A DNA stretch of 64,000 nt from Nemertoderma westbladi. Taxonomy: Eukaryota; Animalia; Xenacoelomorpha. The DNA lies in NCBI GenBank assembly GCA_032718475.1, contig JAUCBJ010006914.1, positions 7,886 to 71,885 of the forward strand, written 5' to 3'. Position numbers and translations under genes: made by a program. The notes under the pieces are model-generated. The model searched no databases and was not told the DNA's origin. It saw only the letters and a program-made list of their open reading frames with translations. Numbering within the stretch: the stretch's first letter is position 1; the number at the start of each line of letters is the position of its first letter. Below, one piece after another: positions 4,304 to 54,858 of the stretch.

Positions 4304-4360
4304 AGAGCCTTTAAGACGGCTTTCGAGGGTCTGGTAGACCACCTGGGGCTGAAGGGCGAG

Positions 4361-6565: not shown

Positions 6566-7146
6566 TGTTAGCGTATTCAATTCCACTAGCCAGGCCCAAA
6601 CAGAGTTGGTTTTAAGCAATATTGGGAGCACGAGGTTGGTTACCAATCAACCTCGTGTCACCCCAATAAGCGGGGTCAATAGGCCCCAAGGGAACACACA
6701 CAGCAGGGGTCAGAGGTTATACCTCCGGGAGGGAGAGAGAGACAGCAGCGGGGGGGGGGGGGGGGAGCACACCGAGAGAGATGGGAGGGTGACAAGTGAG
6801 TTATTAGCCAATGGGGGGAAGGCATCGGCTGAGTAGTGTAATGCGGCCGACCGGTGCAATATATTACCAGTAACCGTGTTATTCATTCACTCATTAGCTA
6901 GTCAGTTCAGTTAGGGTAGGATGGCAACTTTTATTACCGTTCAGCCGTTTATTCATTCATGTTATCTGTATACTGCAATTACTAACTGCATTCGCTATAA
7001 CTGTGCTTATACTTTATACCACTTTATATTATATACATACCGAGCGATTAACAACAGGAACTCTAACAAACTCTTTTCACACGGCGGGACGCATAAATAA
7101 ACCTAACCACCGGATAAACCGGGATCCTCTATCTGATCCCATCACA
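6566..7146 (+). repeat. 3' LTR of family B copy B1 (581 bp, TG...CA)
   Basis: TGTTAGC...GATCCCATCACA; collinear with 42192-42753 (TAAGCAATATTGGGA, CACGAGGTTG, TTATTAGCCAATGGGGG, CACACGGCGGG); preceded by PPT. Confidence 0.85.
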
Positions 7147-11287: not shown

Positions 11288-12365
11288 TGTAAAAGCTTTT
11301 GCGGAATTAGCTAGTCATTTTCCCCGCAAAGTACTCGGTAGGTGTTTTAGCGGACATAAAAAGCCATTTCCTTACTGTACCGGTGTTTTAGTGGACATAA
11401 AAAGCCATTTCTTCTGTAGGTGTACTTTAGCGGACATAACTAGCGATTTTATGTCGCAATAAGCCAAAATACTCTTGATACAGTGCAGTTCAGATGACGA
11501 CATCTATCAGCTGATATGTCCACGTCAGTGTGTATTTTTCCTAAGCCTAGAACACCGGCTGTGGAATTATTCTGTGTTTGAGACTTTAGCCAAACATTAG
11601 AACAGTTTTGATCATAGAAACGTATAACTGTTATTCTGCCAAACTGGCATACAGCCCATATCATACCATACATACCTTTCACCGCATTATTTTACTGCTA
11701 TTTACTGTCGGTTATTAATTGTACCAGTTGATGGAATATTGTTATATTTGGAGAATATCGATAAATAATCGTAAAACCCCAATCTTCTTGATATACTGAA
11801 GGTGAGAGACCGGTTACATATAGCAATTGCGACTTACATTATATTGGTTTTGGAGTGAATTTAATGCTATTTCATAGGCCCTACATGTGTCGGTTGCTGT
11901 TCTCTTTATATGTGACTAAAATTAGTGAAGGTCGGCAGAGATCGGTGTGCAGCATTGTGCGGTAGTGTGCATGAGTTTGATAGATAACAAAGCATCTCCT
12001 AAAGAATGCACTTTATACGTGAATCAATAGCCATCCTGTTGTGTTTAGTGTAAGTCATAACTCTGTTTACATACTTAGAGCGCCACGTCCAAAAGGAACT
12101 GTTGATATTTCCCGAAAGTGAATAATATTTGTCAGAGATTATATATTAACGATCAATCGAATAATTCAGTAGGCCTACACAGCAATAAGGTCAGAGCTTC
12201 CGAATCCAGTCTCCCGGGTAAATCCAGCGGGTGAATGGTCGTGCATAGGCTGGCTTTGGCTAATGTAGTGTATCAAATACTTGTCATAGGCTAAAGTCGA
12301 ATTATAACCTAGAAGACACCTAAATTTGGCAGGTTAAACTGCTAAAAGGTCTAAAAGCGCGAACA
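11288..12365 (+). repeat. 5' LTR of A1 (1078 bp; 83-bp deletion relative to the 3' LTR)
   Basis: TGTAAAAGC...AAAGCGCGAACA; near-identical to 22647-23804. Confidence 0.95.
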
Positions 12366-12377
12366 ATAACAGTTATA
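12366..12377 (+). promoter_or_regulatory. Non-tRNA primer-binding site of A1, complementary to LTR site 11623-11634
   Basis: ATAACAGTTATA is the reverse complement of TATAACTGTTAT; no TGG after the LTR. Confidence 0.75.
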
Positions 12378-14357
12378 TCTTCTGATTGCAGTGTAGGCAA
12401 TAAATACAGTTTAATATTGTTCTGGTAAGAACAATAACAGTTGTAAAGTACCGGTCGACCGGTAACCAGTAGGCCTGACTGCCTAACCACCCGAACCGGT
12501 ACTTACAGCAGTACAGGTACAGCAGTATTATTCGATTTTGATAATTATATACCAGTAGGTCTTAATATTTAATCGGGGACGCCTGGTTTTTATTGGGATT
12601 TTACTTAGGCCTATTTCTGTCAGTTTTATTTATTTGAAAGTTAATATTGAACAGAAGGCGTGTAAGCCTGCTCAGATTGTACAGATAATTTGTAGGCTGG
12701 ATTGTTGTCTGGCTGTTGTTAAGTCTGAAGAGATTGCAGTGTGTGTAGAGTGTATGTCCGATAAAGTACTAGTTAGGAACGTAGGGGCTTCCAGAGCTGT
12801 AAGGTAAATCCCCCCCCCCCCCCCCCCCCCGAAAGAATAAGTTGTACTACTCGGTTAGAACGCATACTAACTAACCATTTCGGAGTCTGCATATACTGTA
12901 GTTTATTTAGGCTTGATAGTAGTCTGCCAGCATTTGGTTTGTATTTTGTTTGTGTAGTCTGTACGGGTAGCGTAATATTTATTATTCAGAGTTTATGCGA
13001 TTATTCGCAACATTCACAAACCCCAAGTTTATTCCTACAGTAATTGTGCTTGTTATACATACCTAACGGTATGTATAACAAGCACAATTAAGCGCAGTTA
13101 AATTAACCCCGGTACTACATCAGGGCTGTTTGGCGTAGGTAAAGACTAGAGATTTTATGCTTTGGTCACTCTGGCAGATACCGTGGTTCTTTTAGCTGTA
13201 CAAGTATTTTTTAACTGCTGGTTATTTGTTGTATAAGTACTTGTACCTAATTTAGGGTTTAGTGTACAGTGCTTTCCGAAGGTAATTAGCGTGTAAGCAG
13301 TATATTTGTGTTGTAAAGTGGTTAATAGGCACGTTGGCTCTGGTAGGCCGCGGTAATTAACTTCTAGGTAGGAACACTCCGTGATACATAACGTAGTACT
13401 TATAGTGCTATGGCTATAAGTCATCAGACGGTGGTATTTTTCCTATCTGGACAACGCAATATATTTACTACTGCTTTATTATTTTCAAATACCGTATTAT
13501 CCTGTCCGTTTGTAATAACCAGATTTTCTAACCCTTTGTTAGGCTGGTTTGTAGACTTCTTGTAAAATTACCCTAAAAATTCGTACGTGTAATTTTTGTG
13601 TTTATTATTAGAGATTGTAATCTCACCCCGCAATTGTACATAATTTGTAGTAATAAGTAACTTAGGCAAGTAGAATTATTTGTTTTAGTGTCCAACAAGT
13701 AGCACTCCACTGAAAGCCTACAGCTTCTGTGTAGTGACTCCTTCCCAGAAATAATAAAATTTATTTCAAATATTGTAAAAAAACCCATTAAACGGGTATA
13801 TATATTATAAATCAACTCAAACCGATTTATAAAATAGTAGGCCTGTCATACAACAATTAGGTCTTAATATCAGTTGGACTACTGCTTAAATAATGGTAAT
13901 AAAGTAAAGTAAAGTAACCAAGTAACCCCTTAAATTCAGAAATTCAATTATTCTAAAATAATTGACATACCGGTATTTACAATAGGCTTATTATATTTAT
14001 TTCTATAAATTTAAGCTGAAATTATATACCGGTATTCTGTAATTAATTCTAGTCTATAATTATACTTATATATACATTATAAGTGTAAGCTGTATACCGG
14101 TATTCACGATAGGCTTATTATATATTTCTATATATTTGTGCTGAAATTATATACCGGTATTCTGTGACAAATCTAGTCTGTAATAATACTTATATATACT
14201 ATAAGTGTATACCGGTATTCTAATATATTGTGTATATATATCACGTTACACTGAGTAACGATATCGGTAATTAATTACTAGGCTAACAGTTGATACTGAA
14301 TTACTAGACTTGCTTTAACAGTAATATAGCAGTAGGCATTCAACTGTACAAACAAAC

Positions 14358-17300
14358 ATGTCTGACACAAAGCAAAACCTGTCAGACAGTCTCCTAGATA
14401 CAAGCATCTGTGACCCAGACAGGAGTGTGGAACGTGTGAGACTGAAGTTCAACTCACCTCCTACTGTGAGAAAGATCATCCCTCCAGTAGTGGTATCAGA
14501 CCCTAGATAGTCCAACACCGTAGGTCTATCATAGGCACTCGGGCTCAAGTCAAGCAGGACCAAGAAGCAGCTGTTAAACAGCAGCAACACTCGAGCCGAG
14601 AACTTATTTCTCAGTGGCCCGACAGCTCCAGTAGTTCGGATACTGTAGAGCTGACACCCGAGCGCGGAGCAAAGATGGCAGATGCAGTTTATTCGGATCC
14701 CCTTCTCATCCTTCCTGCAGCCGTACTCACTAGGGTATTGATTGCGGTGGAGGAACACCAAATTGATTGGGCGAGAAGTAAGCGATCGACCAAGGATAGT
14801 TATGCAGGATACACAAGGGAGGAACTGAAGTCTATTGTCGAGTCGCAATGGAACTTCCCCGGACCCGGACTCCCGTTTGACTTATCGGAAGCTGCCTGGG
14901 AAGACATACACAGGATGGGAGTGACGAAAGACACTAGTGATCCAGCTGTGTGGAAGAGGTCGGCAGCAGGATATGTACAGGGATTCTTCAGCTCTTTGGA
15001 GCGATTAGAAGAACAACTGTTTCGACAACCCCAAGGACCTCAAGAGTAGGGAGAGCTGCTTTATCAAGTTCGAGAAAGAATTCTAAGGATCAGACTAATC
15101 CTATCGGCCTTTGAGGAAGCTTCGAAAAGAAGACAAGACACGTCGTTGCAAGTTGCCGTAAAGACTTGGTTCCAGCGGGTGAGTCTCAAGGTTCAAGGAA
15201 CGGCCCAGTGGAAATTTCAGCTGGCTGAGCGCTCAACCCACAGAGAATCAACAGACGCTACCTTTTCTCAAGTGGAAAGCGAAGCGATAGCGGAGAAACC
15301 GCAGCAGAGGGACGCTATTGACATCTATCTGTCAGACTATCAACGATTCCTAGGTGACAAAGAGTTGAGGAGACGGCTGTCTGGACTTCGCCCTAATAGT
15401 GACGGAGCCAAGCTTGTGTTGGACGCAATAGATGCGGAAATGTTAGCTGCGAACCAAGCTAAATTTGATTAAAGCAGCCGCATCGCTAGGGTCCAAGAAG
15501 AACAAGTAAAGAAAAAACGTATAGAAGACAGAAAGACAGCAGCAGCAGCGGCAATGGCAGCGGCAGAAGCGGAAAGAAAGGTGGCAGAGGCAGTGGCAGA
15601 GGCAAAAGCGGCAGCTGCAGCAGTAGAAGCGGAAAGAAAAGCAGCAGCGGCAGAGGCAAAAGTGGCAGCGGCAGAGGCAAAAGCGGCAGCTGCAGCAGTA
15701 GAAGCGGAAAGAAAAGCGGCAGCGGCAGAAGCGGAAAGGAAGATAGCAGGGGCAGAAGCAGAACGAAGAGCATCTGAAGAGACCACCCAACTAGAGTTGG
15801 AAAATCTGCAAGAGAAGCAAGACTACATAGATAAACAGAGAACAGCTACTCAGTGGCAGCTGATAATTCGATCCACCCCCAAGCAACATGGCTTTACATC
15901 ATCGGATGAAGGCGATACAACAGATCCTGAAGGCGGAGGAAATAGATCTCGTCTCAGCAGGCGTAGAAGAATGCCCCACCGTCAGAAATTGCCTGATTTG
16001 CCCCCAGCTGTGAGAAGGCAACTAGCTAGCACAGACTTAGGTAGTACAGAACCCACAGACCAATTATTGTAGAAAGTCTCCCTACTATAGTAGATGAACC
16101 TGAAATAATTAGGCCTGTTCTCGAAGCCACCCCTTCGGTGATAGAGACACCTGTACTCCCAGAACCTACCTCTAAATTCCCTTTGCACAGCACTAAACTA
16201 CCTGTGCCCAGCAGAACCGCCCCTGAGACAGTTCCTGTCCTGGACTCCAAGCGAAATATCAACGATTTGTCGCCCGTGGTCCCTCGCCTGCCCGCTACTA
16301 TGTTGGCGGCTCCCGCTTCGGCGGTCGAGTGGGTGGATGAGGGGCGGCGGGGGATGAATCTCCTGCTCGGGCAGATGCAGGAGACTGTTCATCAGTTTAA
16401 GGGAACTGTAAGGGAAAGTAGGTTAGAGTTGCAAGAAGTGCAGCAGAGTATCGCGTTAGAACGCGATAAATTAGTAAATACACAAAAGGGTATACCACCA
16501 CCCCCTGTAACAATGTGTCAACCTGTTAGGTCTGAAGTATTTCATGCGCAAGGTGTGGAGCCTACACGCATCTATACTGCTAGTGAAGTGGAAACTCCTA
16601 TAGTAAACCCTATTAAGGGTAATTCTAAACCTGTTGACAATGATATTCCATAGACCATAGACCCCATAGACCTCCATAGACCTGATCATAATCCGAGAAA
16701 TTTATATACCGATAACTCGATATTAAATAACACGATGGCCCAAGAAAGTTTTACGCGTCAAATGGCTAGAACCGAAGCCCGTCAAGCGGTAAAGGTGGGA
16801 GAGATCGTCAAGTTCAATGGAGATGAGATGAAATGGTTACCTTTTAATGAATATTACAAAGATAACATACAGAACTCTGTGCTATCTAACGGAGAGAAAC
16901 TTAGATTCCTCATCGAGTGCTTGGAAGGATCTCCCAAGTTAATGGCGTTAAAGTTTATTGGACATCCAGATGGATTAAGACAAGTTTGGGATACACTGAA
17001 CATCAGGTATGGTAATAGGTAATAGCTAGGTATTTATATGCGAAATTAATGGCGCCCCGAAAGTTTCTTAGCAGCGGGATTATAGAGTTTTCCAACGAGA
17101 TTCAGGAGATCTGTAGACAACTAGATTGGTTAGGTAAGTCTCATGAATACTAGAATTCTATGGTTGTAGGAGCCTTAGCATCTACTTTGCCCAAGGGCGG
17201 AGTAGGTACACGCTGGGACAAGAAAGTGTTATATATGATGGAACAACAACGAAGAGATCCTACCATGGCTGATCTCATGTCATTCTTAGATGGAGAGGTA

Positions 17301-18735
17301 AAATTACAGCTCCTAAAGCAGTCCAGAGAGAAGACACCGGAAAATAAGGTAAGTGAGAAACCCGTTTCTAGGAGAAAGGTAATACCAGTGTGTTATACAG
17401 ACGACGGTGAAAGCCAGGCTTCTCAAGAGGAAGACAGTGGGAAAGACACTGAAAGATCTTACTATGACAACAAAGCGCCTAAGGACGTAAGTAAATTCAA
17501 GTCTCGAACCAATGACAGGAGAGAACAGGTAAGAAAAACTCCTCCTACGACTCCTAAGAGAATTGATGGAAGAAAGCCCGAGGAAAGAACGAGTGTGCAC
17601 AACGTTATCCAAAGTAAGGTAAGTAACATCAAACCAAAATGTGTGTTGTGCGATGGGCCCCACCGTTTAAGTGCGTGTGATGAATTCCTGAGGAAATCAT
17701 TAAAAGATAGACGTGAACTCATGTGGGATAAGCGGTTGTGTTATAATTGCCTCAGACGAGGACACCAACGACGAACCTGTTACTCCGACACAAGGTGTGC
17801 TAAGTGCGGCGCAAAACATCATATCTTGTTGCACACTGAATTCGAAAGAAACAGCCCGAGTCAGGTAAGTGAGTCCGAACTACATGTCCAATTCAGTGAT
17901 GTGAACGACACTGATCAAAGTTCTGAGATGGAAGGATTCTATACTGATAAATTCTCCGACGAAAACGAATCCTGTTACCTAATAAATACCGCAGTGTATC
18001 GAGCACTTACGTATGAGAAAGAAACCGATAGTGAGCTCCCCCCAACTGCTCCTGACCGACAACCATCTTGGAAAGCACCAACATCCAATGTAGGAATCCG
18101 AGAATTTCCCGTAGTGCAGTTGAGAGTCCACGGGCCTAAAAAGAGTTATATAGTGAACGCCCTCCTTGACTCCGGCAGCACACGAACATTCATCGACAAA
18201 GAACTAGCCGAAGACATCTTTGCTGGACAACCCAAGTTCCGAACTAAGTTGAACCTTGCAGGAATTATGCAGGTTTGGAAATCTACAGTAGTTACAGACT
18301 ACTATGTAGGCGCGTTGTCCACCCCCCAGGATGAACTAGGAGAACACAGTATAAGGTCAGTAAAAATGGTGGTGATAAAGAACTTCGCTACCAGCCAAGT
18401 GGAACCTTATAACTGGGATGAGGACTATTTCACCCAGCAGCATAAGATACCTAGATTCAACACAGACTACCCTGGAGTGCAAATACTCATCGGCCAAAAT
18501 GCGCATGAGGCGCTTGAGACATTGGAGAAACAGCCTGCTCAACCGCAACCACTGCAAACCTATGCGGGAAGAACAAGAGTAGGTTGGTACCTCACTGAAC
18601 CTTCCCGTAGGACACTCTTGGAAAGGCTACCCAAAGATCGGGTCCATAAGAAGAGAGTGAATGGGAAGAAGACATCAGTGAGGGAGACGACCCAACTGAG
18701 GGAACACCATACTCCTCAGATAATGGCGATATTAA
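14358..18735 (+). pseudogene. A1 gag-protease (BEL/Pao), multiple stops and frameshifts
   Basis: ATG MSDTKQNL; Ala/Glu/Lys repeat; KFNGD..KW..F capsid-like region; CVLC..PHRL..C, CYNC..GH..C, C..C..HH.LLH knuckles; protease ALLDSGS. Confidence 0.9.
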
Positions 18736-18740
18736 CTCCA

Positions 18741-19380
18741 ATGTAGATCAATGGAGACATTGCCCCGAGACGATTAATCTAGCCGACATCGCTTCCAGAG
18801 GAGCAACTCCTCAAGAACTGACAGATACTCCAGACAGGTTAGGTGGACCCGACTTCCTAATTAAAGAAGATGAATGGCCTCCCCATCTTACCACGGCTGA
18901 GATTAGACAAGCCAAGGGAGCAGAGAAAGTCAAACCTAAATCCCGGACGAGTAAATCAAGGTTATTAAACCCGTGATAGATCTGTCTGTACAACACATTG
19001 CCAGGGCCAACACTGTGGATCTAAACTCCCCCACCGCGAACAGATCTGTTGTGGAGATCAGAGAGAGAGACTGGAGATCTGGAACACCAGACGTCTCGCA
19101 GGGACCCTCACCTCTCCTGCCGGGAGCGATGGACCACTATAGCTCCTGGAATCGGCTTTGTAAGGCCGTCGTGTATTTGAAGCGATGTTTCTATCGTCAC
19201 TATTCCAGGACGAAGAGGAAACCTGGAATTGTCTTCGAGACACAGCAGCTCAATCGCCCAGTTGGTCGTTTATGTTTACTGGAAAGAGACAGAGAACTCT
19301 CCTGAAACTATGGAAGGCAAGATACTCTTCCCACGACCACCTCCCTAATCCAACCAACATCTAGGGACTCCCCAACGTAA
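18741..19380 (+). pseudogene. A1 pol remnants: RNase H 3' part fused to the integrase C-terminus
   Basis: DQWRHCP..NLADIASRG segment, then at ~19213 jumps from YSRTK to KPGIVFETQQLNRPVGRLCLLE (matches end of A2 integrase). Confidence 0.85.
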
Positions 19381-22568: not shown

Positions 22569-22646
22569 CTGTTTAGAGTATTTTTATATTTTAGAAACTG
22601 TGATTTTTTATATTTTATAGAATTAAATCCCATTTTCTGGGAGTGG

Positions 22647-23804
22647 TGTAAAAGCTATTGCGGAATTAGCTAGTCATTTTCCCCGCAAAGTACTCGGTAG
22701 GTGTTTTAGCGGACATAAAAAGCCGTTTCCTTACTGTACCGGTGTTTTAGTGGACATAAAAAGCCATTTCTTCTGTATGTGTACTTTAGCGGACATAACT
22801 AGCGATTTTATGTCGCAATAAGCCAAAATACTCTTGATACAGTGCAGTTCAGATGACGACATCTATCAGCTGATATGTCCACGTGTAACTTTTTCTTTGT
22901 TCGGTCGACCAATCAGAGCGATTTTCTTTGTGTTGGACAGTGCATATAGAAACTCACGCAATTCAGTCAGTGTGTATTTTTCCTAAGCCTAGAACACCGG
23001 CTGTGGAATTATTCTGTGTTTGAGACTTTAGCCAAACATTAGAACGGTTTTGATCATAGAAACGTATAACTGTTATTCTGCCAAACTGGCATACAGCCCA
23101 TATCATACCATACATACCTTTCAACGCATTATTTTACTGCTATTTACTGTCGGTTATTAATTGTATCAGTTGATGGAATATTGTTATATTTGGAGAATAT
23201 CGATAAATAATTGTAAAACCCCAAGCTTATTGATATACTGAAGGTGAGAGACCGGTTACATATAGCAATTGCGACTTACATTATATTGGTTTTGGAGTGA
23301 ATTTAATGCTATTTCATAAGCCCTACATGTGTCGGTTGCTGTTCTCTTTATATGTGACTAAAATTAGTGAAGGTCGGCAGATCGGTGTGCAGCATTGTGC
23401 GGTAGTGTGCATGAGTTTGATAGATAACAAAGCATCTCCTAAAGAATGCGCTTTATACGTGAATCAATAGCCATCCTGTTGTGTTTAGTGTAAGTCATAA
23501 CTCTGTTTACATACTTAGAGCGCCACGTCCAAAAGGAACTGTTGATATTTCCCGAAAGTGAATAATATTTGTCAGAGATTATATATTAACGATCAATCGA
23601 ATAATACAGTAGGCCTACACAGCAATAAGGTCAGAGCTTCCGAATCCAGTCTCCCGGGTAAATCCAGCGGGTGAATGGTCGCGCATAGGCTGGCTTCGGC
23701 TAATGTAGTGTATCAAATACTTGTCATAGGCTAAAGTCGATTTATAACCTAGAAGACACCTAAATTTGGCAGGTTAAACTGCTAAAGGTCTAAAAGCGCG
23801 AACA
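22647..23804 (+). repeat. 3' LTR of A1 (1158 bp), preceded by atypical PPT CTGGGAGTGG
   Basis: Direct repeat of 11288-12365; followed by TSD CCCAT. Confidence 0.95.
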
Positions 23805-23945: not shown

Positions 23946-24030
23946 GCGACAGAGAGGAGTGGATGGCAAGATGTCCGGAGGAACGTCCGGAAGAGACGCC
24001 GGTCCGGTTGAGAGGCATACAGTGAGTTAA

Positions 24031-25407: not shown

Positions 25408-26643
25408 TGTTCGCGCTTTCAGACCTTTAGCAGTTTAACCTGCCAATTTTAGGTGTCCTCTTGTTTATAAATCGACTTTAGCCTATAACAATTATTTAAT
25501 GCACATGAAGTAACATTAGCCGAAGCCAGTCTATGCGCGATCATTCACCCACAGTTAAGGGAGACTGGATTCGGATGCTTTGACCTTATTGCGTTGCAGA
25601 CCTACTGTATTATTCGATTGATTGTTACTATATAATCTCTGACAATATTATTCACTTTCAGGGAAATATTAACAGTTCCTTTAGGACGTGGCGCTTTAAG
25701 TATAAAACAGAGTTATGACTTATACTAAACACAACCAGATGGCTAATGATTTTCGTAAATAGCGCATTCTTTAGGAGATGCTTTATTATCTGTCACAATG
25801 CTGCATACGATTTCACACTGCTGCACACTGATCTGCCGACCGTCACTGAATTTGATCATATATAAGGAGGATAGCAACTGACACATGTAGGGATTATGAA
25901 ATAGCATTTAATGCACACTAAACCACTGTAATGTAAGTCGCAATTGCTACCGGTAACCGGTCCCTCTAACCTTTAGTAATCAAGAAGATTGGGGTTTTAT
26001 GATTATTTATCGATATTCTCCAAATATAACAACATATCCATCAACATATAACCATTAATAACAGACAGTAAACAGAAGTACAATAATGCGGTGATATTCA
26101 GCCAGTATCGTTAATACCGGTACCGCAGGTGCCAAGTGACCAGTTGTTATGGTTAGTTGCACAGTTGCACAGTGCAGCAGGGCCAGTAATGGATCCAGTC
26201 AGTCCAGAGATAATAGATTTACGTTCTTGTAATCAAAGCCATCTAATGTTGGCCAGATTCTGAAACTTCTAACACAGAAGTACAGAATAATTTCTAAGCA
26301 GTTGTTCTCGCTCAGAAAGGTAAAACCAAGACCGTCATGCATTGCGCGGTTTTCCGTAGGCCTCTGTGCAAAATAAAATGAAAATCGCTCTGATTGGTCG
26401 AGCGAGCCGAACAAAGAAAGTTAAGAAAGCTCCACATCGACATCAAATCAGCTGACAGATGTCGTCATCTGAACTACACTCTATTTAGAGTATTTGGCGT
26501 ATTGCGGCATAAAATGGCTTGTTATGTCCGCTAAAACACCTACAGGGTACATTGCGGAGAAAATGGCTTGTTATGTCCGCTAAAACAACTAAACAGTTTA
26601 TTGCGGAGAAAAATGACTGGTTATATCCGCAAAAGCTTTTACA
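25408..26643 (-). repeat. 3' LTR of A2
   Basis: Direct repeat of 40080-41315; preceded on minus strand by PPT-like CTGGGAGCAG. Confidence 0.95.
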
Positions 26644-26721
26644 CTGCTCCCAGAAAATGGGATTTAATTCTATAAAATATAAAAAATCACAGTTTCTAAA
26701 ATATAAAAATATTCTAAACAG

Positions 26722-29967: not shown

Positions 29968-31329
29968 TTACGTTGGGGAGTCCCTAGATGTTTGTTGGAT
30001 TAGGGAGGTGGTCGTGGGAAGAGTATCTTGCCTTCCATAGTTTCCGGACAGTTCTCTGTCTCTTTCCAGTAAACATAAACGACCAACTGGGCGATTGAGC
30101 TGCTGTGTTTCGAACACAATTCCAGGTTTCTTAAAGTTACGTTGCATGACGACGAGTTCTACCGATCGCACCAAACCATCATCTGAGATATGAGTCTCGA
30201 TGATACGACCTGTCTGCCACCACTTACGTGGAAGATCTGATTCCACAATAAGGACCATGTCTCCGGCGCTGATGTTTTCTTGCTGCGCAAACCACTTGGT
30301 TCGAAGTTGTAGCGTAGGCAGATAATATTTTTCGAAATGGTCAGCGAAACGACGGGATAATAACTGCATAAGTTGCCAAGTTTGTTGGCAGTATTCGTCT
30401 ATGTCCGTGATTTCCGATCGTGGGAGCATGGCTACAGGTTTCTTCAGTAGGAAGTGCGCAGGTGTTAGCGCTTCCAGGGAGTCGGTACTCGATGAGACTG
30501 GCATAAGCGTTCTTTCGTTAAGATAGGCGGTGATTTCTTCCATTAATGTCCGCAAAAGTTCGTCGGTGAGATACGCGCGGCATGGCACTATAAAGTGAAA
30601 TGTGGTCTTCACGCTTCTTATTAATCTCTCGCAACTTCCTCCCCACCAAGGGGCGTTGGCGGCATTGAATGTCCAGCTAGATGATGTTACCCTTAGCTGA
30701 TCGTCCACCTGTCTTTGGTTCCAATCTCTAACGTAAGCCTTGATCTCATTATTGGCGCCAATGAAGTTCGTCCCCTTATCAGATCTCATCGTGTTGCTAG
30801 TTCCAAAGCGAGCGATCTGTTGGCGTAGACTCAGTATGAAGCTGTTGGTAGATAGATCGTTCACCATATCTAAATGGATCGCTCTACAAGTCATACAGAC
30901 AAAGATGACACACCATCGCTTGACTATATTCCTGGCACGATATACTTCAATAGGGCCAAATAAATCCACACCAGTATTAGTAAAGGGTGGTTCATAGAAG
31001 CTTACTCGTTCCCTAGGTAATTCTGCCTCTCGCTGTGTTAAAGGCCTACTGAATGCTTTCCTACAGGGTATACAGTTCCTAAGAACTTGGTTCAGAGCTC
31101 TACGGGGTTTATGAAAATAATAGCGAGTTCGAATTTCGCTAAGAACTCGTTCTCTACCAGCATGGTAAAGCTTACTGTGAACATCTACAATCATCTTGAT
31201 TTGTATTTCAAGATTTCTAATGAGTATGGGAAACTTAGTGTCAAAGGATAATGGAGCATTAGTTAGTCTCCCTCCAACACGTATTAACCCATCTATCATT
31301 GTGCTAGAGAAACGATCCCTTAAGCGCAT
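29968..31329 (-). CDS. A2 integrase part of pol
   Basis: GLIRVGGRL, HHCC (H..YHAG..CIPC), PPFTNTGVDLFGP, SDKGTNFIGA, PWWGGSCERLI (DDE), LTPAHFL, GRII..DGLVR; separated from upstream pol by one in-frame TAG. Confidence 0.9.
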   Translation of the reverse strand: MRLRDRFSSTMIDGLIRVGGRLTNAPLSFDTKFPILIRNLEIQIKMIVDVHSKLYHAGRERVLSEIRTRYYFHKPRRALNQVLRNCIPCRKAFSRPLTQREAELPRERVSFYEPPFTNTGVDLFGPIEVYRARNIVKRWCVIFVCMTCRAIHLDMVNDLSTNSFILSLRQQIARFGTSNTMRSDKGTNFIGANNEIKAYVRDWNQRQVDDQLRVTSSSWTFNAANAPWWGGSCERLIRSVKTTFHFIVPCRAYLTDELLRTLMEEITAYLNERTLMPVSSSTDSLEALTPAHFLLKKPVAMLPRSEITDIDEYCQQTWQLMQLLSRRFADHFEKYYLPTLQLRTKWFAQQENISAGDMVLIVESDLPRKWWQTGRIIETHISDDGLVRSVELVVMQRNFKKPGIVFETQQLNRPVGRLCLLERDRELSGNYGRQDTLPTTTSLIQQTSRDSPT

Positions 31330-32562
31330 CTATGGATTTCTCAACAACAGGAAATACTTATCGGAATCTTCATAGCATTGCAGGAGTCTCAGTATCTGCT
31401 TATTGGTTTCTTCATGCTCCTGGTAACTGATCTTCTCCGTCAGAAACCTATCTGAGATTTTATATTTGGGAAGATCTTTAATAGCATGGACCTGCACAGA
31501 TGTCAGTGGAGCGGTATCACTAGCGATCTTCGTCCTGGAGTAGTGATGATGAAAGCATCGCTTTAAATATACGATGGCCTTACAAAGCCGATTCCAGGAG
31601 CTATAGTGATGTATCGCTCTCTGTATGAGAGGTGAGAGTCCCTGTGAAACGTCTGGTGTTCCAGATTTCCAGTCTCTCTCTCTGATTTCCACAACAGACT
31701 TATTTGTGGCGGGGGAGTTTAGATCCACAGCAACGTCTCCGGAAATATGTAGTACAGACAGATCTATCACGGGTTTAAATAACTTCGATTTACTCGTCCG
31801 GGTTTTAGGTTTGACTTTCTCCGCTCCCTTGGCTTGTCTAATCTCAGCCGTGGTGAGATGAGGAGGCCATTCATCCTCTTCTTTACTTAGGAAGTCGGGT
31901 CCACCTAACCAGTCTGGAGTGTCTGCCAGTTCTTGAGGAGTTGCTCCTCTGGAGGCGATGTCGGCTGGATTAATCGTCCCAGGGCAATGTCTCCATTGAT
32001 CTACACTAGTGCGACTAAGTATAACGACTACTCTGTTGGTAACGAAGACGCTGAACTGACAGACTTCATTGGTTATATACTCCATAACGAGTAAAGCATC
32101 AGTCCAATAGACAGTTTTCTCCAGTGGATAGTCGATCTGTTCTGTGACATTCCGGCCGATGGCTGTAGCGTATAGAGCTGCCTTTAACTCCGCTCGAGGA
32201 ACTCGTAGCTTGTAGTTTATCAAGGCCTTAGAGGTAACCAAGGCAACTTTAATTCCATCCGGAGTTTCAACCCTCAGGTAGGCTACTATACCTATTCCCA
32301 TATCGCTGGCGTCTCCAAACACATGGAGTTGATAGGAATATGTGGGGAGAACATGACCAAAATATGAACGGGAAATCGTAAAGTTCCCGATGGATGGTAG
32401 AGAATCTTCCCATTTCATCCACTTCTTTAGTAGTTCTCCCTTAAGTGGATCGTCCCACGAGTGGTTTTCAAGCCACATTTGTTGAACTAAACTCCGAGCA
32501 ACCAATATAACTGGGCGAATAAATCCCAATGGATCGAAATAAGTGCTCGGATACTTAGACAA
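31330..32562 (-). CDS. A2 RNase H region of pol (Pao-type)
   Basis: FDPLG, QLHVFGDAS, PRAELKAA, YWTD, WRHCPG.INPADIASRG; frameshifted from the RT ORF near 32550. Confidence 0.9.
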   Translation of the reverse strand: MSKYPSTYFDPLGFIRPVILVARSLVQQMWLENHSWDDPLKGELLKKWMKWEDSLPSIGNFTISRSYFGHVLPTYSYQLHVFGDASDMGIGIVAYLRVETPDGIKVALVTSKALINYKLRVPRAELKAALYATAIGRNVTEQIDYPLEKTVYWTDALLVMEYITNEVCQFSVFVTNRVVVILSRTSVDQWRHCPGTINPADIASRGATPQELADTPDWLGGPDFLSKEEDEWPPHLTTAEIRQAKGAEKVKPKTRTSKSKLFKPVIDLSVLHISGDVAVDLNSPATNKSVVEIRERDWKSGTPDVSQGLSPLIQRAIHHYSSWNRLCKAIVYLKRCFHHHYSRTKIASDTAPLTSVQVHAIKDLPKYKISDRFLTEKISYQEHEETNKQILRLLQCYEDSDKYFLLLRNP

Positions 32563-35500
32563 ATCCGTTTAGTTCGAATTGGATTATCTCGCTGTTTTAG
32601 CTGGAAAAACAGGATATCTCTCTCCGTGTCCCATTTCAAACCAAGCGTCTTGGTTTCTGGAAGATCGTCCTTGATAAGGTCTAGATCTTTAACTCCTCGG
32701 TCTTCTACCGGGATCGATTCCAGAAATTCACGGGAGTTACTGGTGAATTTAGTTAATCGAAATCCACCTCTTTTCAAGCACTCTACCGTTCCCTTGGCGA
32801 CATCAATGGCTTCTTCCACCGATGGGAGGGACTTTAAATTGTCGTCCATGTATATATCCCGTTTGATGTTACCGATAACCACTTTAGAGAAGGCGTCCCG
32901 GTTGTCATCAGCAGTGGTGCGCACTACTGAGCAGGCGTTTGAGGGGCTCGAGATGATCCCAAAAGCCTGGATGGTCATCCAGTACTCCACCGGTTTCTGG
33001 TTGAGGTCTCCTTCAGGCCACCACAGAAATCGTAGGCTGTCTCGATCCCTATTCAGCGCCTTAACTTGTAAGAACATGCCTTCTATATCCGAGGCGAAAG
33101 CAATCGAATATTGTCGTAATCTTAAGAGTATTCCCAACAAGGATTGGAGTAAGTTGGGTCCCGGCAACAACTCGGAGTTAAGGGATTGGCCCATGTAGAG
33201 GGCGAAGCCGTCAAATACTACCCGGACTTCGTTGGGTTTACCGGGTTTGGGAACGTAATGATGTGTTAAATAGTACGTTCTCTCAGTTATGGGTGTTTCT
33301 TCCTGTACTCGCTCCGCATATCCCTTGTCAATGAATTTCTTCAGCTGGGTCTTGTACATCTCCTTAGCTGAAGCATTTGCCGTAAGGCGTCGATGTAGTT
33401 GCGCGATTCTCTTCTCTGCCAAGGGTCGGTTATTTATAAAATTGGGTTCTCGCCGTCGGAAAGGCAGACCAATCTCATACCTACCTTGATCTTTAAGAAA
33501 ACGTGTAGTCGTTTCCTGTATCTGCTTGGCTCTTTCCTCTTCTACCGATAGGGCCTTATCATAGGAATTAGGCTCTACAGCTTCTTGAGTAAAGAATCGT
33601 ATGGCGTGTTCATCGCGAGTCTTCGCGTTGTAATGATCTATCACTTCATTCAGTTCGTCGTTGTAATCGACTTGTCCACCTGGATGGATGAGGTGACACA
33701 GGTTCACTTGGTTTTGCCAAGTTTCATTTTCCGTAAGGAGGTCGATGGTATTCTCCTTGTTGAATAGTTGATGAATATCGTCATTATCTGAGGAGTATGG
33801 TGTTCCCTCAGGTGTGTCGTCTCCCTCACTGATTTCCTCTTCCCATTCACTCACCTGGTGGACTTGATCTTTAGGTAGCCTTTCCATGAGTGTCCTACGG
33901 GAAGGTCCAGTAAAGTACCAACCTACTCTAGTTCTTCCTGCATAGGTTTGCAGTGATTGCGGTTGAGCAGGCCTTTTCTCTAATGTCTCAAGCGCCTCAT
34001 GCGCATTTTGGCCGATGAATATTTGTAACCCTGGGTAGTCGGTGTTGAATCTAGGTATCTCATGCTGCTGGGTGAAGTCGTCTTCATCCCAGTTATAAGG
34101 TTCCTCTTGGCTGGTAGCGAAGTTCTTTATCGCCACCATATTTACTGACCTTATACTGTGTTCTCCTAGTTCATCCTGGGGGGTGGATAACGCGCCTACA
34201 TAGTAGTCTGTAGCTACTGTAGATTTCCAAACCTGCATAATTCCTGAAAGGTTCAACTTAGTTCGGAACTTGGGTTGTCCAGCAAAGATGTCTTCGGCTA
34301 GTTCTTTGTCGATGAATGTTCCTGTGCTGCCGGAGTCAAGGAGGGCGTTCACTATATAGCTCTCTTTTAACCCGTGGACTCTCAACTGCACTACGGGAAA
34401 TTCTCGGATTCCTACGTTGGAAGTTGGCGCTTTCCAAGATGGTTGTCGGTCAGGAATAGTTAGGGGGAGCTCACTATCGGTTTCAGTCTCATATGTAAGT
34501 GCTCGATACACTGCGGTGTTTATCATATAGCAGGATTCGTTTTCGTCGGAGAATTCGTCCGTGTAAAATCCTTCCATCTCAGAACTGTGGTCAGTGTCGT
34601 TCACATCACTGAATTGGACATGTAGTTCAGACTCACTTACCTGACTCGGGCTGTTTCTTTCGAATTCGGTGTGCAACAAGATATGATGTTTCGCGCCGCA
34701 CTTAGCACAACTTGCGTCGGAGTAACAGGTTCGCCGTTGGTGTCCTTGTCTGAGACAATTATAACACAACCGCTTATCCCACATGACTTCGCGTCTATCT
34801 TTTAGGGATTTCTTTAAGAATTCATCACACACACTTAAACGATGGGGCCCATCGCACAATGCACATTTTGGTTTGATGTTACTTACTTTACCTTGGGTAG
34901 TGTTGGGTACACACGTTCTTTCCTCGGGCTTTCTTCCATGAACTCTCTTAGGAGACGTAGGAGGAGTTTTTGTTACCTGTTCTCTCCTGTCACTGGTTCG
35001 AGACTTAAAATTACTTACGTCTTTATGTGCTTTGTTGACATAGTAAGATCTTTCGGTGTCTTTCCCGCTGTTCTCCTCTTGAGAGGTTTGGCTTTCGCAG
35101 TCATCTGTATAACACACTGGGGTGACCTTTCTCCTAGAAACAGGTTTTTCAGTTACCTTATTTTCTGGTGTCTTCTCTCGGGACTGCTTTAGGAGCTGTA
35201 ATCTTACCTCTCCATTTAAGAATGACATGAGATCAGCCATGGTAGGGTCTCTTTGTTGCTGGTCCATCATATAGAGCACTTTCTTGTCCCACCGAGTACC
35301 TACTCCACCCTTTGGCAAAGTAGAGGCTACGGCTCCAATAACCATGGAACTCTGATATTCATGAGACTTACCTAACCAATCTAGTTGTCTACAGATCTCC
35401 CGAATCTCATCGGAAAACTCTATAATCCCGCTGCTAAGGAACTTTCGGGGCGCTACTAATTTCGCATACAAATACCTAGCTATGTTTGTCCTATTACCAT

Positions 35501-38173
35501 ACCTGATGTTTAGTGTATCCCAAACTTGTCTTAATCCATCTGGATGTCCAATAAACTTTAACGCCATTAACTTGGGAGGTCCTTCCAAACACTCGATGAG
35601 GAATCTAAGTTTCTCTCCGTTAGATAGTACAGAGTTCTGTATGTTATCTTTGTAATATTCATTAAAAGCTAACCATTTCATCTCATCTCCATTGAATTTG
35701 ACGATCTCTCCCACTTTTACCGCTTCACGGGCTTCGGTTCTAGCCATTTGACGCGTAAAACTTTCTTGGGCCATCGTGTTATTTAATATCGAGTTATCGG
35801 TATATAAATTTCTCGGATTATGATCAGGTCTAAATTGAATATCATTGTCAACAGGTTTATAATTACCCTTAATAGTGTTTACTATAGGAGTTTCTACTTC
35901 ACTAGCAGTATAGATGCGTGTAGGCTCCACACCTTGCGCATGAAATACTTCAGACCTAACAGGTTGACACATTGTTACATGGGGTGGTGGTATACTCCTT
36001 TGTATATTTACTAATTTATCGCGTTCTAACGCGATACTCTGCTGCACTTCTTGCAACTCTAACCTACTTTCCCTTACTGTTCCCTTGAACTGTTGAACAG
36101 TCTCCTGCATCTGCCCGAGCAGGAGATCCATCCCCCGCCGTCCCTCATCCACCCACTCGACCGCCGAAGCGGGAGCCGCCAACATAGTAGCGGGTAGACG
36201 AGGGACGACGGGTGATAAATCGTTGATGTCTCGCTCGGCGTCCAGGACAGGAATTCTCTCAGGGGCTGTTCTACTGGGCACAGGTAGTTTAGTGCTGTGC
36301 AAAGGGAATTTAGAGTTGGGTTCTGGAAGTACAGGTGTCTCTATCACCAAAGGGGTGGCTTCGAGAACAGGCCTAATTATTTCAGGCTCATCTACTATAG
36401 TAGGGAGTCTTTCTACTCTAATAATTTGGTCTGTGGGTTCTGTACTACCTAAGTCTGCGCTAGCTAGTTGCCTTCTCACAGCTGGGGGCAAATTAGGCAA
36501 TTTCTGATGATGAGGCGTTCTTCTACGTCTGCTGGAACGAGATCTATTTCCTCCGCCTTCAGGATCTGTTGTATCGCCTTCATCAGATGATGCAAATCCC
36601 TGTCTCTTGGGAGTAGATCGACTTATCATCTGCATATACTTAGCTGTTCTTTGTTTATTGAAGTAATCTTGCTTCTCTTGAAGATTTTCCAACTCTAGTT
36701 TGACTGTCTCTTCAGATGCCCTCCGTTCTGCTGCTGCCACTGCCTCTGCCGCCTTTCTTTCCGCTTCTGCCGCTGCTACCTTTCTTTCCGCTTCTGCCTC
36801 TGCCGCCGCCATTGCCGCTGCCGCTTTTCTTTCCGCTTCTGCCGCTGCCGCTTTTCTTTCCGCTTCTGCCGCTGCCGCTTTTCTTTCAACTTCTGCCGCT
36901 GCAGCTGCCGCTTTTCTTTCAGCCTCTGCCACTGCCGCTGCAGCTGCCGCTTTTCTTTCAACTTCTGCCGCTGCCGCTGCCGCTGCTGCTGCCTTTCTGT
37001 CTTCTATCCATTTTTTCTTTAATAATTGTTGTTCCTGTTCCCTGGCGATGAGGATGCTTTCATCAAATTTAGCATGCTCTACGGCTAACATTTCCGCATC
37101 TAATGCGTCTAACACAAATTTGGCTCCCTCACTAGTAGGATGAAGTCCAGACAGTCGTCTCCTTAGCTCTTCGTCTCCTATAAATCGTTGATAGTCCGAC
37201 AGATAGATGTCAATAGCGTCCTTCTTCTGAGGTTTCTCCAATGTCGCTTCGCTTTCCACTTGAGAAAAGGTAGCGTCTGTTGATTCTCCATGGGTTGAGC
37301 GTTCAGCCAGCTGAATTTTCCATTGGGTTGTTCCTTGGACTTTAAGACTTACCCGTTGGAACCAAGTCTTTACGGCAACTTGCAACGACGTGTCTTGGCT
37401 TCTCTTCGAGGCTTCCTCAAAGGCCGAAAGGATCAGTCTGATTCTTAGGATTCTTTCTCGAACTTGGTAAAGCAGCTCTCCCTGCTCTTGAGGTCCTTGG
37501 GGTTGTTGAAACAGTTGTTCCTCTAATCTCTCCAAAGAGCTGAAGAATCCCTGTACATATCCTGCTGCCGACCTCTTCCACACAGCTGGATCTCTTGTGT
37601 ATTTTGTCACTCCCATCCTGTATAGGTCCTCCCAGGCAGCTTCCGATAAGTTAAACGGGAGTCCGGGTCCGGGGAAGTTCCATTGCGTCACGACAATAGA
37701 CTTCAGTTCCTCCCTTGTGTATCCCGCATAACTGTCCTTGGTTGATCGCTTACTTCTCGCCCAATCGATTTGATGTTCTTCTACCGCAATCAATACCCTA
37801 GTGAGTACGGCTTCAGGAAGAATGAGAAGTGGATCCGAATAAACTGCTTCTGCCATCTTGGCTCTGCGTTCGGATGTCAACTCTACCATATCTGAACTAC
37901 TGGAGCTATCGGGCCGCTGAGAAATAAGTTCTCGGTTCGAGTGTTGCTGCTGTTTAACAGCTGCCTCTTGGTCCCGCTTGACTTGAGCCCGAGTGCCTAT
38001 GATAGACCTACGGTACTTTACTAGCCTAGGGTCGGATACTACTACTGGAGGGATGACCTTCTTACAGTAGGAGGGGACTTGAACTTCGGTCTCAAACGTT
38101 CCGCACTCCTATCTGGATCGCAGACTGTTGTTTCTAGGAGACTATCTGACAGATTTTGCTTTGTGTCAGCCAT
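32487..38173 (-). pseudogene. A2 gag-protease-RT polyprotein (1800-aa open stretch 32487-37889; true ATG 38173 with a frameshift near 38060)
   Basis: Gag knuckles CALC/CYNC/CAKC, protease LLDSGS, BEL RT motifs YYLTHH, RVVFD, SLN..L.GPNL, DIEGMFLQV, YMDD, GGF.L.KF.SNS. Confidence 0.92.
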
Positions 38174-40068: not shown

Positions 40069-40079
40069 AAATCTATTAT
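40069..40079 (-). promoter_or_regulatory. Non-tRNA primer-binding site of A2, complementary to LTR site 40882-40892
   Basis: Minus-strand ATAATAGATTT directly after the 5' LTR pairs with minus-strand AAATCTATTAT in the LTR. Confidence 0.75.
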
Positions 40080-41315
40080 TGTTCGCGCTTTCAGACCTTT
40101 AGCAGTTTAACCTGCCAATTTTAGGTGTCCTCTTGTTTATAAATCGACTTTAGCTTATAACAATTATTTAATGCACATGAAGTAACATTAGCCGAAGCCA
40201 GTCTATGCGCGATCATTCACCCACAGTTAAGGGAGACTGGATTCGGATGCTTTGACCTTATTGCGTTTCAGACCTACTGTATTATTCGATTGATTGTTAC
40301 TATATAATCTCTGACAATATTATTCACTTTCAGGGAAATATTAACAGTTCCTTTAGGACGTGGCGCTTTAAGTATAAAACAGAGTTATGACTTATACTAA
40401 ACACAACGAGATGGCTAATGATTTTCGTAAATAGCGCATTCTTTAGGAGATGCTTTATTATCTGTCACACTGCTGCATACGATTTCGCACTGCTGCACAT
40501 TGATCTGCAGACCGTCGCTGAATTTGATCATATATAAGGAGGATAGCAACTGACACATGTAGGGATTATGAAATAGCATTTAATGCACACTAAACCACTG
40601 TAATGTAAGTCGCAATTGCTACCGGTAACCGGTCCCTCTAACCTTTAGTAATCAAGAAGATTGGGGTTTTATGATTATTTATCGATATTCTCCAAATATA
40701 ACAACATATCCATCAACATATAACCATTAATAACAGACAGAAAACAGAAGTACAATAATGCGGTGATATTCAGCCAGTATCGGTAATACCGGTACCGCAG
40801 GTGCCAAGTGACCAGTTGTTATGGTTAGTTGCACAGTTGCACAGTGCAGCAGGGCCAGTAATGCATCCAGTCAGTCCAGAGATAATAGATTTACGTTCTT
40901 GTAATCAAAGCGGTCTAATGTTGGCCAAAGTCTGAAACTTCTAACACAGAAGTACAGAATAATTTCTAAGCAGTTGTTCTCGCTCAGAAAGGTAAAACCA
41001 AGACCGTCATGCATTGCGCGGTTTTCTGTAGGCCTCTGTGCAAAATAAAATGAAAATCGCTCTGATTGGTCGAGCGAGCCGAACAAAGAAAGTTAAGAAA
41101 GCTCCACATCGACATCAAATCAGCTGACAGATGTCGTCATCTGAACTACACTCTATTTAGAGTATTTGGTGTATTGCGGCATAAAATGGCTTGTTATGTC
41201 CGCTAAAACACCTACAGGGTACATTGCGGAGAAAATGGCTTGTTATGTCCGCTAAAACAACTAAACATTTTTTTGCGGAGAAAAATGACTGGTTATATCC
41301 GCAAAAGCTTTTACA
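40080..41315 (-). repeat. 5' LTR of A2 (1236 bp)
   Basis: Direct repeat of 25408-26643; TG...CA termini; TSD adjacent. Confidence 0.95.
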
Positions 41316-41320
41316 GTCTC

Positions 41321-48628: not shown

Positions 48629-49825
48629 TGTAAAGGCTTTTGCGTAATTAGCCGGTTATTTTCCCCGTAAAGTACTCTGTAGTTGGTTTAACAGGCATAA
48701 AAGGCCGTGTCCTTACTGTACTGTTGTTTTAGAGGACATAAAAGCCATTTCTTCTGTATGTGTACTTTAGCGGACATGATTAGCAATTTTATGACGCAAT
48801 GCGCCAAATCCTCTGTAAACAGTGTAGCTACCATGACGACGGCTAACAGCTGATGCTGTATACGTGGACCTTTTTCTTTGTTCTCTGTTCCTTCTTTGTT
48901 CGGTCGACCAATCAGAGCGTTTTTTGCCTCTGTGTTAGAGATTGTATATAGAAACTCGTGGAGTTGAGTCAGTATGTGATTTGTCCACAGCCTACAACAC
49001 CGGCTTTGGAATCTCCGTGTTTCAGTCTTTAGTCCAACATTAGTAGGCTTAATTATAGAACGTATATCCGTTATCATACATACATAACTCACTTAACTTA
49101 ACTAATCATACCATACTGACATACTTAACAAAGCGATCATATCAATTTATACCTTAACATTTTGCTGCTTTTACTGTCGGTTATTCATTATATTTGTTGA
49201 TGGAATATTATATTTGGAATACTGATAAATAATCAGACACCCCAATCTTCTTGATATACTAAAGGTTAGAGAGACCGGTTACATATAACAATTGCGACTT
49301 ACATTAAGTGGTTTGAAGTGAATCTAATGCTATTTTATAGGCCCTACACGTATTGTCTGTTGTTCTCCTTATATGTGACTAAAATTAGTGAAGGTCGGCA
49401 GATTGGTGTGCAGCATTGTGCAGTATTGTGTATGATCGTGATTGATAACGAAGCATCTCCTAAAGAATGCGCCATATACGTGAATCTATAGCCATCCCAT
49501 TGTGTCTGGTTTAAGTCATAACTCTGTTTATATATTTAGAGCGCCACGTCCTAAAGGAACTGTTAATATTTCCCGAAAGTGAATAATATTTGTCAGAGAT
49601 TATATATATTACGATCAGTCGAATAATACAGTAGGCCTACCCCGCAATACGGTTAGGCTCCCGAATCCAGTCTCCCGGGTATATCCAGCGGGTGAATGAT
49701 CGCGCATAGACTGGCTTCGGCTAATGTAGTGTATCAAATACTTGTCATAGGCTAAAGACGATCTATTATCTAGAAGACATCCCAATTTGGCAGGTTAAAC
49801 TGCTAAAGGTCTGAAAGCGCGAACA
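48629..49825 (+). repeat. 5' LTR of A3 (1197 bp)
   Basis: TGTAAAGGC...AAAGCGCGAACA; homologous to A1/A2 LTRs. Confidence 0.93.
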
Positions 49826-49837
49826 ATAACGGATATA
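49826..49837 (+). promoter_or_regulatory. Non-tRNA primer-binding site of A3, complementary to LTR site 49063-49074
   Basis: ATAACGGATATA is the reverse complement of TATATCCGTTAT. Confidence 0.75.
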
Positions 49838-50230
49838 AAGTTCGGATTGCAGGGTAGGCAATAAATACAGTTTAATATTGTTCTGGTAAGAACAATAACA
49901 GATATATACGTACAATCAGAAGATATATTTGTCTATTGTTCTGGTAAGAACAATAACAGATATAGCTTCTGTATTGCAGTAGGCAATAACGCTGAAGTAC
50001 CGGACAACCGGTACCTAGTAGGCCTGACTACCTAACCACCCGGACCGGTACCTACAGCAGTACAGGTACAGCAGTATTATTCGATTGTGAAATTGTATAC
50101 CGGTAGGCTGTTTAAGAGATTAGGGACTGTACACCCCTTGTTTCTTTTGGAGCTTACTTATTTCTGTCAGTTTTATTTATTTGTAGGCCAGTATTGAGCA
50201 GAAGGCGTGTAAGCCTGCTCAGATTGTACA

Positions 50231-53549: not shown

Positions 53550-53869
53550 CTGGTTTAAGTCATAACTCTGTTTATTTATTTAGAGCGCCACATCCTAAAG
53601 GAACTGTTAATATTTCACGAAAGTGAATAATATTTGTCAGAGATTATATATATTACGATCAGTCGAATAATACAGTAGGCCTACCCCGCAATACGGTTAG
53701 GCTCCCGAATCCAGTCTCCCGGGTATATCCAGCGGGTGAATGATCGCGCATAGACTGGCTTCGGCTAATGTAGTGTATCAAATACTTGTCATAGGCTAAA
53801 GACGATCTATTATCTAGAAGACATCCCAATTTGGCAGGTAAAACTGCTAAAGGTCTGAAAGCGCGAACA
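53550..53869 (+). repeat. Partial 3' LTR of A3 (last 320 bp)
   Basis: Matches 49506-49825. Confidence 0.92.
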
Positions 53870-53874
53870 GGACG

Positions 53875-54856: not shown

Positions 54857-54858
54857 TA

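Follow-up and report, generated by a model that had tools for sequence, protein, structure and literature searches.

A candidate LTR-derived self-primer with a second covarying partner in a BEL/Pao retrotransposon family of Nemertoderma westbladi

How does an LTR retrotransposon begin reverse transcription when its primer-binding site (PBS) does not resemble a tRNA? BEL/Pao is one of the three main groups of LTR retrotransposons and is defined as tRNA-primed, as an earlier note on this DNA had stated. The ICTV text describes an 18-nt PBS that can pair with the 3' end of tRNA-Arg or tRNA-Gly (PMC8742986). The DNA analysed here, a 64-kb stretch of Nemertoderma westbladi without any N (the window), holds three insertions (A1, A2 and A3) of one BEL/Pao LTR family, which we call family A. 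In all three, no TGG lies within 40 nt 3' of the LTR, in line with the note's statement that no TGG/tRNA PBS is present. We estimate a probability of about 0.8 that family A is primed by a segment of its own LTR, counting internal and 5'-end primers together.

The limits of the LTRs were set by both LTR copies and by the 5-bp target duplications (CCCAT for A1, GAGAC for A2, and GGACG for A3). All three elements have TGT...ACA ends (Table 1). The 5' and 3' LTRs within one element are 98.5-98.8% identical, and LTRs compared between elements are 77.9-86.6% identical. A short G-rich tract precedes the 3' LTR in A1 and A2. The 5' LTR of A1 carries a deletion near 11525 of about 80 nt that held CCAAT and a TATA-like box. 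Family A is abundant and diverse: two DNA runs yielded 7110 and 2342 contigs, respectively, that align to the A2 LTR.

Table 1. Positions of family A elements, LTRs and putative priming features in the window
Feature	Positions	Strand	Remarks
A1 whole element	11288-23804	+	12.5 kb
A1 5' LTR	11288..12365	+	1078 bp; 98.6% to A1 3' LTR
A1 segments a, b upstream of primer	11582..11600	+	partners 12290-12298 and 12260-12266
A1 candidate self-primer	11624..11634	+	11-nt core; 11623 pairs as 12th base
A1 guide d	11983..11989	+	pairs primer bases 6-11 and base 12; holds first 6 nt of PBS
A1 hairpin between d and e	11990..12012	+	20/23 columns invariant in the three 5' LTRs
A1 guide e	12013..12019	+	pairs primer bases 1-4 and the 3 bases 5' of those
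A1 PBS	12366..12377	+	directly 3' of the LTR's CA
A1 duplicate of LTR end and PBS	12434..12445	+	downstream; differs from PBS at column 10
A1 3' LTR	22647..23804	+	full CCAAT/TATA-like/TCAGT cluster; primer site copy 23065-23076
A2 whole element	41315-25408	-	15.9 kb
A2 5' LTR	40080..41315	-	1236 bp
A2 candidate self-primer	40882..40892	-	
A2 guides d (40462-40456), e (40432-40426), hairpin between	40426..40462	-	
A2 PBS	40069..40079	-	
A2 gag-pol	29968..38108	-	three open frames; breaks near 32500-32570 and at 31330
A2 3' LTR	25408..26643	-	primer site copy 26220-26210
A3 whole element	48629-53869	+	internally deleted
A3 5' LTR	48629..49825	+	1197 bp; CCAAT -156, TATA-like -119, TCAGT -95 from primer
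A3 candidate self-primer	49064..49074	+	11-nt core; 49063 pairs as 12th base
A3 guides d (49444-49450), e (49474-49480), hairpin between	49444..49480	+	
A3 PBS	49826..49837	+	
A3 duplicates (two) of LTR end and PBS	49895..49906, 49953..49964	+	downstream
A3 3' LTR, leftover 3' part	53550..53869	+	

By its predicted proteins, family A is BEL/Pao, with a predicted mode of priming outside the ICTV description. A2 encodes Gag DUF1759, protease, reverse transcriptase (RT), Peptidase_A17/RNase H, integrase H2C2, and DUF5641, which is the BEL/Pao order, and its translation shows three zinc knuckles in Gag and YMDD in RT. The domain search of A2 gave no chromodomain match, and Pfam RVT_1 alone scored under its cut-off. 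With the A2 RT region, 148 relatives were found at E up to 1e-30. The best of them share 40-46% identity and carry BEL domains, and the named sources among these best matches are sea urchin, corals, abalone, and lancelet. A quick RT tree, built without named reference elements or a Gypsy/Copia outgroup, put A2 on a long, unsure branch and in no well-supported set. Family A resembles the ICTV Belpaoviridae in animal host, gag-pol domain set and order, and LTRs at the top of the 0.2-1.2 kb range. It differs in having no 18-nt tRNA-Arg or tRNA-Gly PBS and in the length of A1 and A2, which exceeds the 4-10 kb given for these elements (PMC8742986). A2 also contains a 2-kb leader (38108-40079) and a 3.3-kb post-integrase region (26643-29968), both without a long open frame and both aligning in A1.

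No tRNA gene was found in the 64-kb window, but other repeats are present. A second, broken BEL/Pao element (family B; LTR 42192-42753, internal region 42799-48628 and 53870-54858) is interrupted by A3 and ends in a (TATAC)n array. Its PBS is without TGG and matches its own LTR over no more than 6 nt, as expected by chance (88 of 200); the last 5 nt of the self-match site persist in a related LTR (6566-7146). Two long open frames in 3257-5848, for which Pfam gave no match, precede a purine tract and this family-B-like 3' LTR, and are possibly an extra gene of a family-B-like element. A YADD near 845, read by eye, suggests a fragment of non-LTR retrotransposon RT at 1-2370 on the + strand. A2 is inserted in one of two inverted copies of a repeat of about 1.5 kb with 163-bp internal units (24027-25407 with 41316-41494, and 58525-60050; 95% alike).

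The PBS and LTR-site pairs that the earlier note had listed for A1, A2, and A3 are all exact reverse complements. The longest Watson-Crick match of the PBS is 12, 11, and 12 nt (A1, A2, and A3, respectively) at offset 0. It falls at the homologous LTR site in all three copies, as the note had claimed, and is limited to that site plus its 3' LTR copy in A1 and A2. Each PBS begins at the first base past the terminal CA, which puts the 3' end of the candidate primer at the U5 boundary. The spacing between site and PBS, given in the note as about 730-800 nt, measured 731, 802, and 751 nt. PBS bases 13 onward do not match the bases 5' of the primer site. Dinucleotide shuffles of the LTR equalled the match in 2, 22, and 7 of 5000 trials. 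A1 alone would be a weak case because its PBS is almost palindromic, and the weight lies on A2, A3, and covariation.

That covariation was also borne out. In an 11-column alignment of the three copies, PBS columns 5, 6, 8, and 10 vary and every change is compensated in the LTR site (4/4). Letter shuffles equalled this in 8 of 500 trials, and slid controls gave 0 two-sided changes. All six cross-copy pairings of PBS and site contain 1-4 mismatches, with energies of +0.4 to -5.5 kcal/mol versus -8 to -12 kcal/mol for a copy's own pair. Chance, or a functionless copying artefact at the DNA level, could draw on the AT-rich sequence, the near-palindrome of A1, and the restriction to three copies; given these shuffle controls, and with 10 of 11 relatives showing the relation as well (see below), we regard it as extremely unlikely.

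The pairing could instead be a folding switch for packaging, dimerisation, or translation control, with a host RNA such as a tRNA fragment as the true primer. In the established retroviral model, each cycle copies the host primer into the PBS, which should therefore stay constant. In family A, however, 4 of the 11 PBS columns vary, always as Watson-Crick partners of the copy's own site, and the match begins exactly at the LTR end in 3/3 copies. PBS columns 1-7 of all three copies could still pair with one outside RNA through G-U wobble, and half-tRNA primers occur in Copia lineages according to the available text of PMC6317226. On balance, we consider a host primer unlikely.

Downstream of the PBS, A1 and A3 carry displaced duplicates of the LTR end and PBS. 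These are hairpin-linked (one within 12410-12445 in A1, two within 49870-49965 in A3), are absent from A2, and look like products of fold-back copying. The A3 duplicates keep A at column 6, a position at which the true PBS, the primer site, and the segment d described next have all changed.

An unbiased scan for helices held in all three copies covered the LTR and 100 nt more, in which 311 of 1082 ungapped columns vary. Just three helices showed at least two compensated changes, and all of them involve the primer site: site with PBS (four changes), site with a segment d (two), and site with a segment e (two). In 60 column shuffles, such helices (at least 7 bp, at most one G-U) occurred with a mean of 0.017 and a maximum of 1. 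Together, d and e form a split, same-sense copy of the PBS located 345-383 nt before the LTR end, with e 30 nt past d. Consequently, every variable primer base is compensated twice, once in the PBS and once in d or e. A 23-nt hairpin sits between d and e, opposite the invariant C at primer position 5. The alignments thus point to a second covarying partner of the primer site, which would be new relative to the descriptions of Tf1. Having two alternative partners is also switch-like, which suits the folding-switch reading.

RNAalifold nests the d/e junction in two helices, a and b, through which the 45 nt upstream of the site join the last 105 nt of the LTR. Helix a comprises 9 bp with one compensated change and helix b 7 invariant bp. 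For the set of d, e, a, and b, all 90 of 90 cells are paired and 2 of 500 shuffles equal this, a lenient control because the helices were read from the same three copies. Helix d covers base 12, and also base 13 in A2 and A3, and so spans the bond presumed to be cut. The predicted junction energy is -13 to -19 kcal/mol with four upstream bases included, versus -5 to -8 kcal/mol with the bare 11-mer, which forms one helix only. Without the upstream bases, helix e consists of four A-U pairs and does not form. Its pairing with three invariant bases upstream of the 11-mer favours an internal primer; since these pairs and the whole of helix b are invariant, they lend no covariation support. An unanchored partner test on family A copies taken singly returned chance values (141-266 of 300), so d and e stand on covariation rather than length. 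A further 6-bp helix (12006-12011 with 12241-12246) seemed to be compensated in the A1 5' LTR, but it fits CpG decay, has no support from population variants, and was dropped.

Population variants were compared with these assignments. In two DNA runs, variants in e at a frequency of at least 12% fell only in the covarying columns (61%/55% and 12%/11%), which in A1 are positions 12013 and 12015. The hairpin between d and e (11990..12012) had no variant of at least 12% in either run. None was listed for d or the PBS, although the frequencies in e predict one at 55-61%; sequencing depth declines in this part, and d borders the end of the aligned stretch. Likewise, the PBS and site had no variant among the 40 listed of 307 contig-variant rows. 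Position 12010 is A in the A1 5' LTR and G in the four other LTR copies, yet no variant of at least 12% is listed for it, which cautions that rows may be missing.

Distant BEL relatives offered a broader view of PBS/LTR complementarity. A metagenome scan with the RT alignment provided 526 loci, the best 80 of which were considered (RT identity 36-46%). A long direct repeat was present in 34 of the 80; 15 were tested, and four (L020, L038, L054, and L064) were set aside because their LTR ends were unsure. The other 11 each have an LTR end fixed by two LTR copies. Ten of these 11 loci have a PBS complementary to their own LTR, and one (L034) has TGG 5 nt 3' of the LTR. L055 and L078 have a contiguous 11-nt PBS match to their own LTR. 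In eight loci, representing seven families, the contiguous match is only 6-9 nt, and the PBS instead matches 10-15 nt across an LTR intron junction, equalled in 0-1 of 200 shuffles. The predicted introns span 67-186 nt; their donor is GTAAG or GTACG and their acceptor a pyrimidine-rich YAG. Because only splicing creates the match, it suggests that the PBS pairs with RNA derived from the element's transcript. Among seven loci with an unfixed LTR end, two gave an 11-nt junction match (L012, and L023, the twin of L022) and five gave none. Matches of the PBS to an exon-exon junction were found in L002, L012, L022, L023, L029, L049, L057, L061, L066, and L067. Among the four loci set aside, L064 has a 12-nt self-match, L020 has TGG near the end, and L038 and L054 have none above chance. 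The relatives carry entirely different PBSs, each matching its own LTR, which is a further argument against a host RNA primer.

Between the primer and the LTR end, relatives tend to hold a second PBS copy anchored at the primer 3' end. Over nine families (L066, the twin of L061, was left out), the Fisher p was 3.8e-5, a post hoc value because the pattern was first noticed in the same loci. Five of the nine families had p < 0.05 and four were at chance (p 0.12-0.95); shifted anchors gave p 0.12, 0.43, and 0.97. Segment d of family A looks like this second copy in the U5 of relatives. A spliced, intron-made primer was also tried for family A and rejected: the best match is 7-8 nt, at chance level (47-107 of 200), and the family A match is contiguous instead. 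A search of viral contigs with the LTR-end pattern and the RT alignment gave no match. L027 and L028 lie on one contig, in which head-to-tail copies of a BEL element form 6138-bp units that are 100% identical, either as a tandem array or as an assembly artefact.

Is the candidate primer internal to the RNA or its 5' end? The earlier note had suggested that the primer may be internal, citing a CCAAT/TATA/TCAGT cluster about 95 nt upstream of the site. The cluster held in part: CCAAT is found at -156 to -177 from the site in all complete LTRs, whereas A2 lacks the TATA-like and TCAGT elements that A3 and the A1 3' LTR contain. The internal primer gains the helix that pairs bases upstream of the 11-mer and loses a conserved promoter cluster. 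Taken together, helix e, helices a and b in the folding model, and the distance to CCAAT favour an internal primer, and we give somewhat better than even odds to a segment that is clamped by d and e, cut from the element RNA, and used at the PBS.

The Tf1 primer is 11 nt long. On a plain Tf1-type alternative, the family A RNA would start at the A of an invariant CGTA, its first 11 nt would be the primer, and d/e would work as a switch or would guide the cut; the sequences upstream (CGU, a, and b) would then pair only with the RNA 3' end. The constant core of exactly 11 nt at a pyrimidine-A step, like Pol II starts, and a PBS match that ends at the core start or one base before it, without copying upstream bases, speak for such a 5'-end primer. 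The relatives add to this, as the exon-1 part in most spliced cases is just 4-9 nt, often beginning at a pyrimidine-A step; L029 has a TATATAA some 30 nt 5' of this part. Against it, helix e covaries at two columns yet cannot form without the upstream bases. The conserved CCAAT is 156-177 nt 5' of the primer site, and the positions 25-30 nt before the site showed no TATA-like box. Furthermore, the sole shared poly(A)-like word is GATAAA at +136 to +209 of the site; d and e, at least 350 nt downstream of the site, lie beyond it and so are probably absent from the RNA 3' end. A Tf1-type 5'-end primer therefore seems to us possible but rather doubtful.

Under the internal-primer reading, transcription would start at least 3-4 nt upstream of the segment, probably close to a CCAAT-linked start some 95 nt from it. 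Guides d and e would first hold the segment in a three-way junction whose helix d crosses the bond 3' of base 11. Cleavage of this bond would then leave a 3'-OH. The cutter would most likely be the element's RT/RNase H, an assumption taken from Tf1 as presented in the available text of PMC5341516. An internal primer would also require trimming or another cut. Assisted by the Gag zinc knuckles, the freed end would transfer to the PBS, and minus-strand DNA would begin exactly at the LTR end. Copying of the primer during plus-strand synthesis would rewrite the PBS each cycle, which would explain the perfect match of PBS and site, and selection would keep d and e in step. Support comes from three independent copies, the structure having been read from those same copies. 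Self-priming was likewise an inference in the earlier note; it now has a second compensated partner and 10 of 11 relatives behind it, and continues to be a reading of sequence.

Thermodynamic predictions fit this scheme poorly. The site-PBS helix has an equilibrium probability of 0.00 in 9/9 uncut folds, in which the site pairs inside the LTR instead, and it forms only at a cost of 4.6-7.5 kcal/mol when forced. With a cut modelled, the probability of primer-PBS pairing is 0.00, 0.36, and 0.00. Simple energy models hence disfavour transfer from d/e to the PBS, and chaperoning by Gag would be needed. This preference against pairing in cis could suit an element-derived primer that acts in trans as a small RNA (a piRNA or short aborted transcript) with no cut in cis, and so abundant a family may give rise to small RNAs that match. 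If primers were drawn from a mixed family, however, the PBS would not stay matched to its own LTR in 3/3 copies, and a small RNA gives no reason for the covariation of d and e. We judge this explanation very unlikely.

A more speculative possibility, to which we assign low odds, is that an LTR RNA of about 850 nt is an undescribed ribozyme that uses d/e as a guide and cuts its own primer after base 11. The presumed cut lies within the span of the guide, and long invariant blocks occur in the region. Rfam returned no ribozyme or intron family among 6 and 4 matches for the A3 and A2 LTRs (E up to 10). By eye, P/R-like words of a group I core were present without a consistent P7 partner, and no hammerhead core was seen. 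A group II guide was rejected as well: the order of d and e is opposite to the EBS2/EBS1 order of group II introns. If such a ribozyme were real, the primer would be made without a host tRNA and without a protein nuclease.

How does the proposed priming compare with known systems? According to the available text of PMC4600332, PMC5341516, and bioRxiv 10.1101/2022.12.06.519325, self-priming has been shown for Tf1/Tf2 and proposed for Tj1 and Tosmo. Like the Tf1/sushi elements in those texts, in which an LTR segment is cut off and serves as primer, family A has no tRNA PBS, and its own LTR contains the complement of the bases that follow the 5' LTR. The former are Ty3/gypsy chromoviruses, whereas family A is BEL/Pao with its candidate primer 730-800 nt from the PBS. 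In the Tf1 'pretzel', as far as it is described there, two duplexes join PBS-adjacent bases to LTR sequence downstream of the primer. In family A, it is instead the primer that pairs with d and e, a mutually exclusive alternative to the PBS that also engages bases upstream of the primer. No pretzel-type helix with at least two compensated changes appeared in the family A scan, a test that invariant helices would escape. Base 12 pairs with the last LTR base only in A1. Family A is likely Tf1-like by its predicted primer site, with an added covarying guide; by its BEL/Pao domains it is not a Tf1/sushi member, and no pretzel was seen in it.

Self-priming has also been predicted for Tcn1 (Gypsy) and TAR (Copia; Houba, Osr-1) elements, using a plant criterion of at least 10 nt of LTR complementary to the region 0-5 nt after the 5' LTR (PMC6317226, available text). 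All three family A copies have such complementarity. Those elements belong to other superfamilies and hosts, and a second guide is not described for them in that text. In fungal GalEa Copia elements, a Conserved Hairpin Site, a short near-palindrome at the LTR edge, similarly replaces the PBS. It is conserved across families, pairs 12-41 nt downstream, and showed no LTR complement, in contrast to the family A PBS, which varies and tracks the LTR (PMC5445492, available text). Our literature search, whose scope excluded Repbase reports, subscription papers, and supplements, found no paper on BEL/Pao self-priming. It is absent from the available text of PMC3601003, PMC3118150, PMC554778, PMC8220671, PMC13524379, PMC6934838, and PMC5445492; in PMC3118150 and PMC554778, the main text contains neither 'PBS' nor 'tRNA'.

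If self-priming of this kind is real, many marine BEL/Pao elements would be self-primed, and all three main groups of LTR retrotransposons would hold tRNA-free lineages. This would bear on whether self-priming is ancestral or has arisen several times. By its covariation, the second partner suggests that the element RNA is processed or switched in a way not described for Tf1, and it singles out the exact bond at which a cut is predicted. Annotation based on the PBS would miss such elements, and they may escape control by tRNA 3' fragments.
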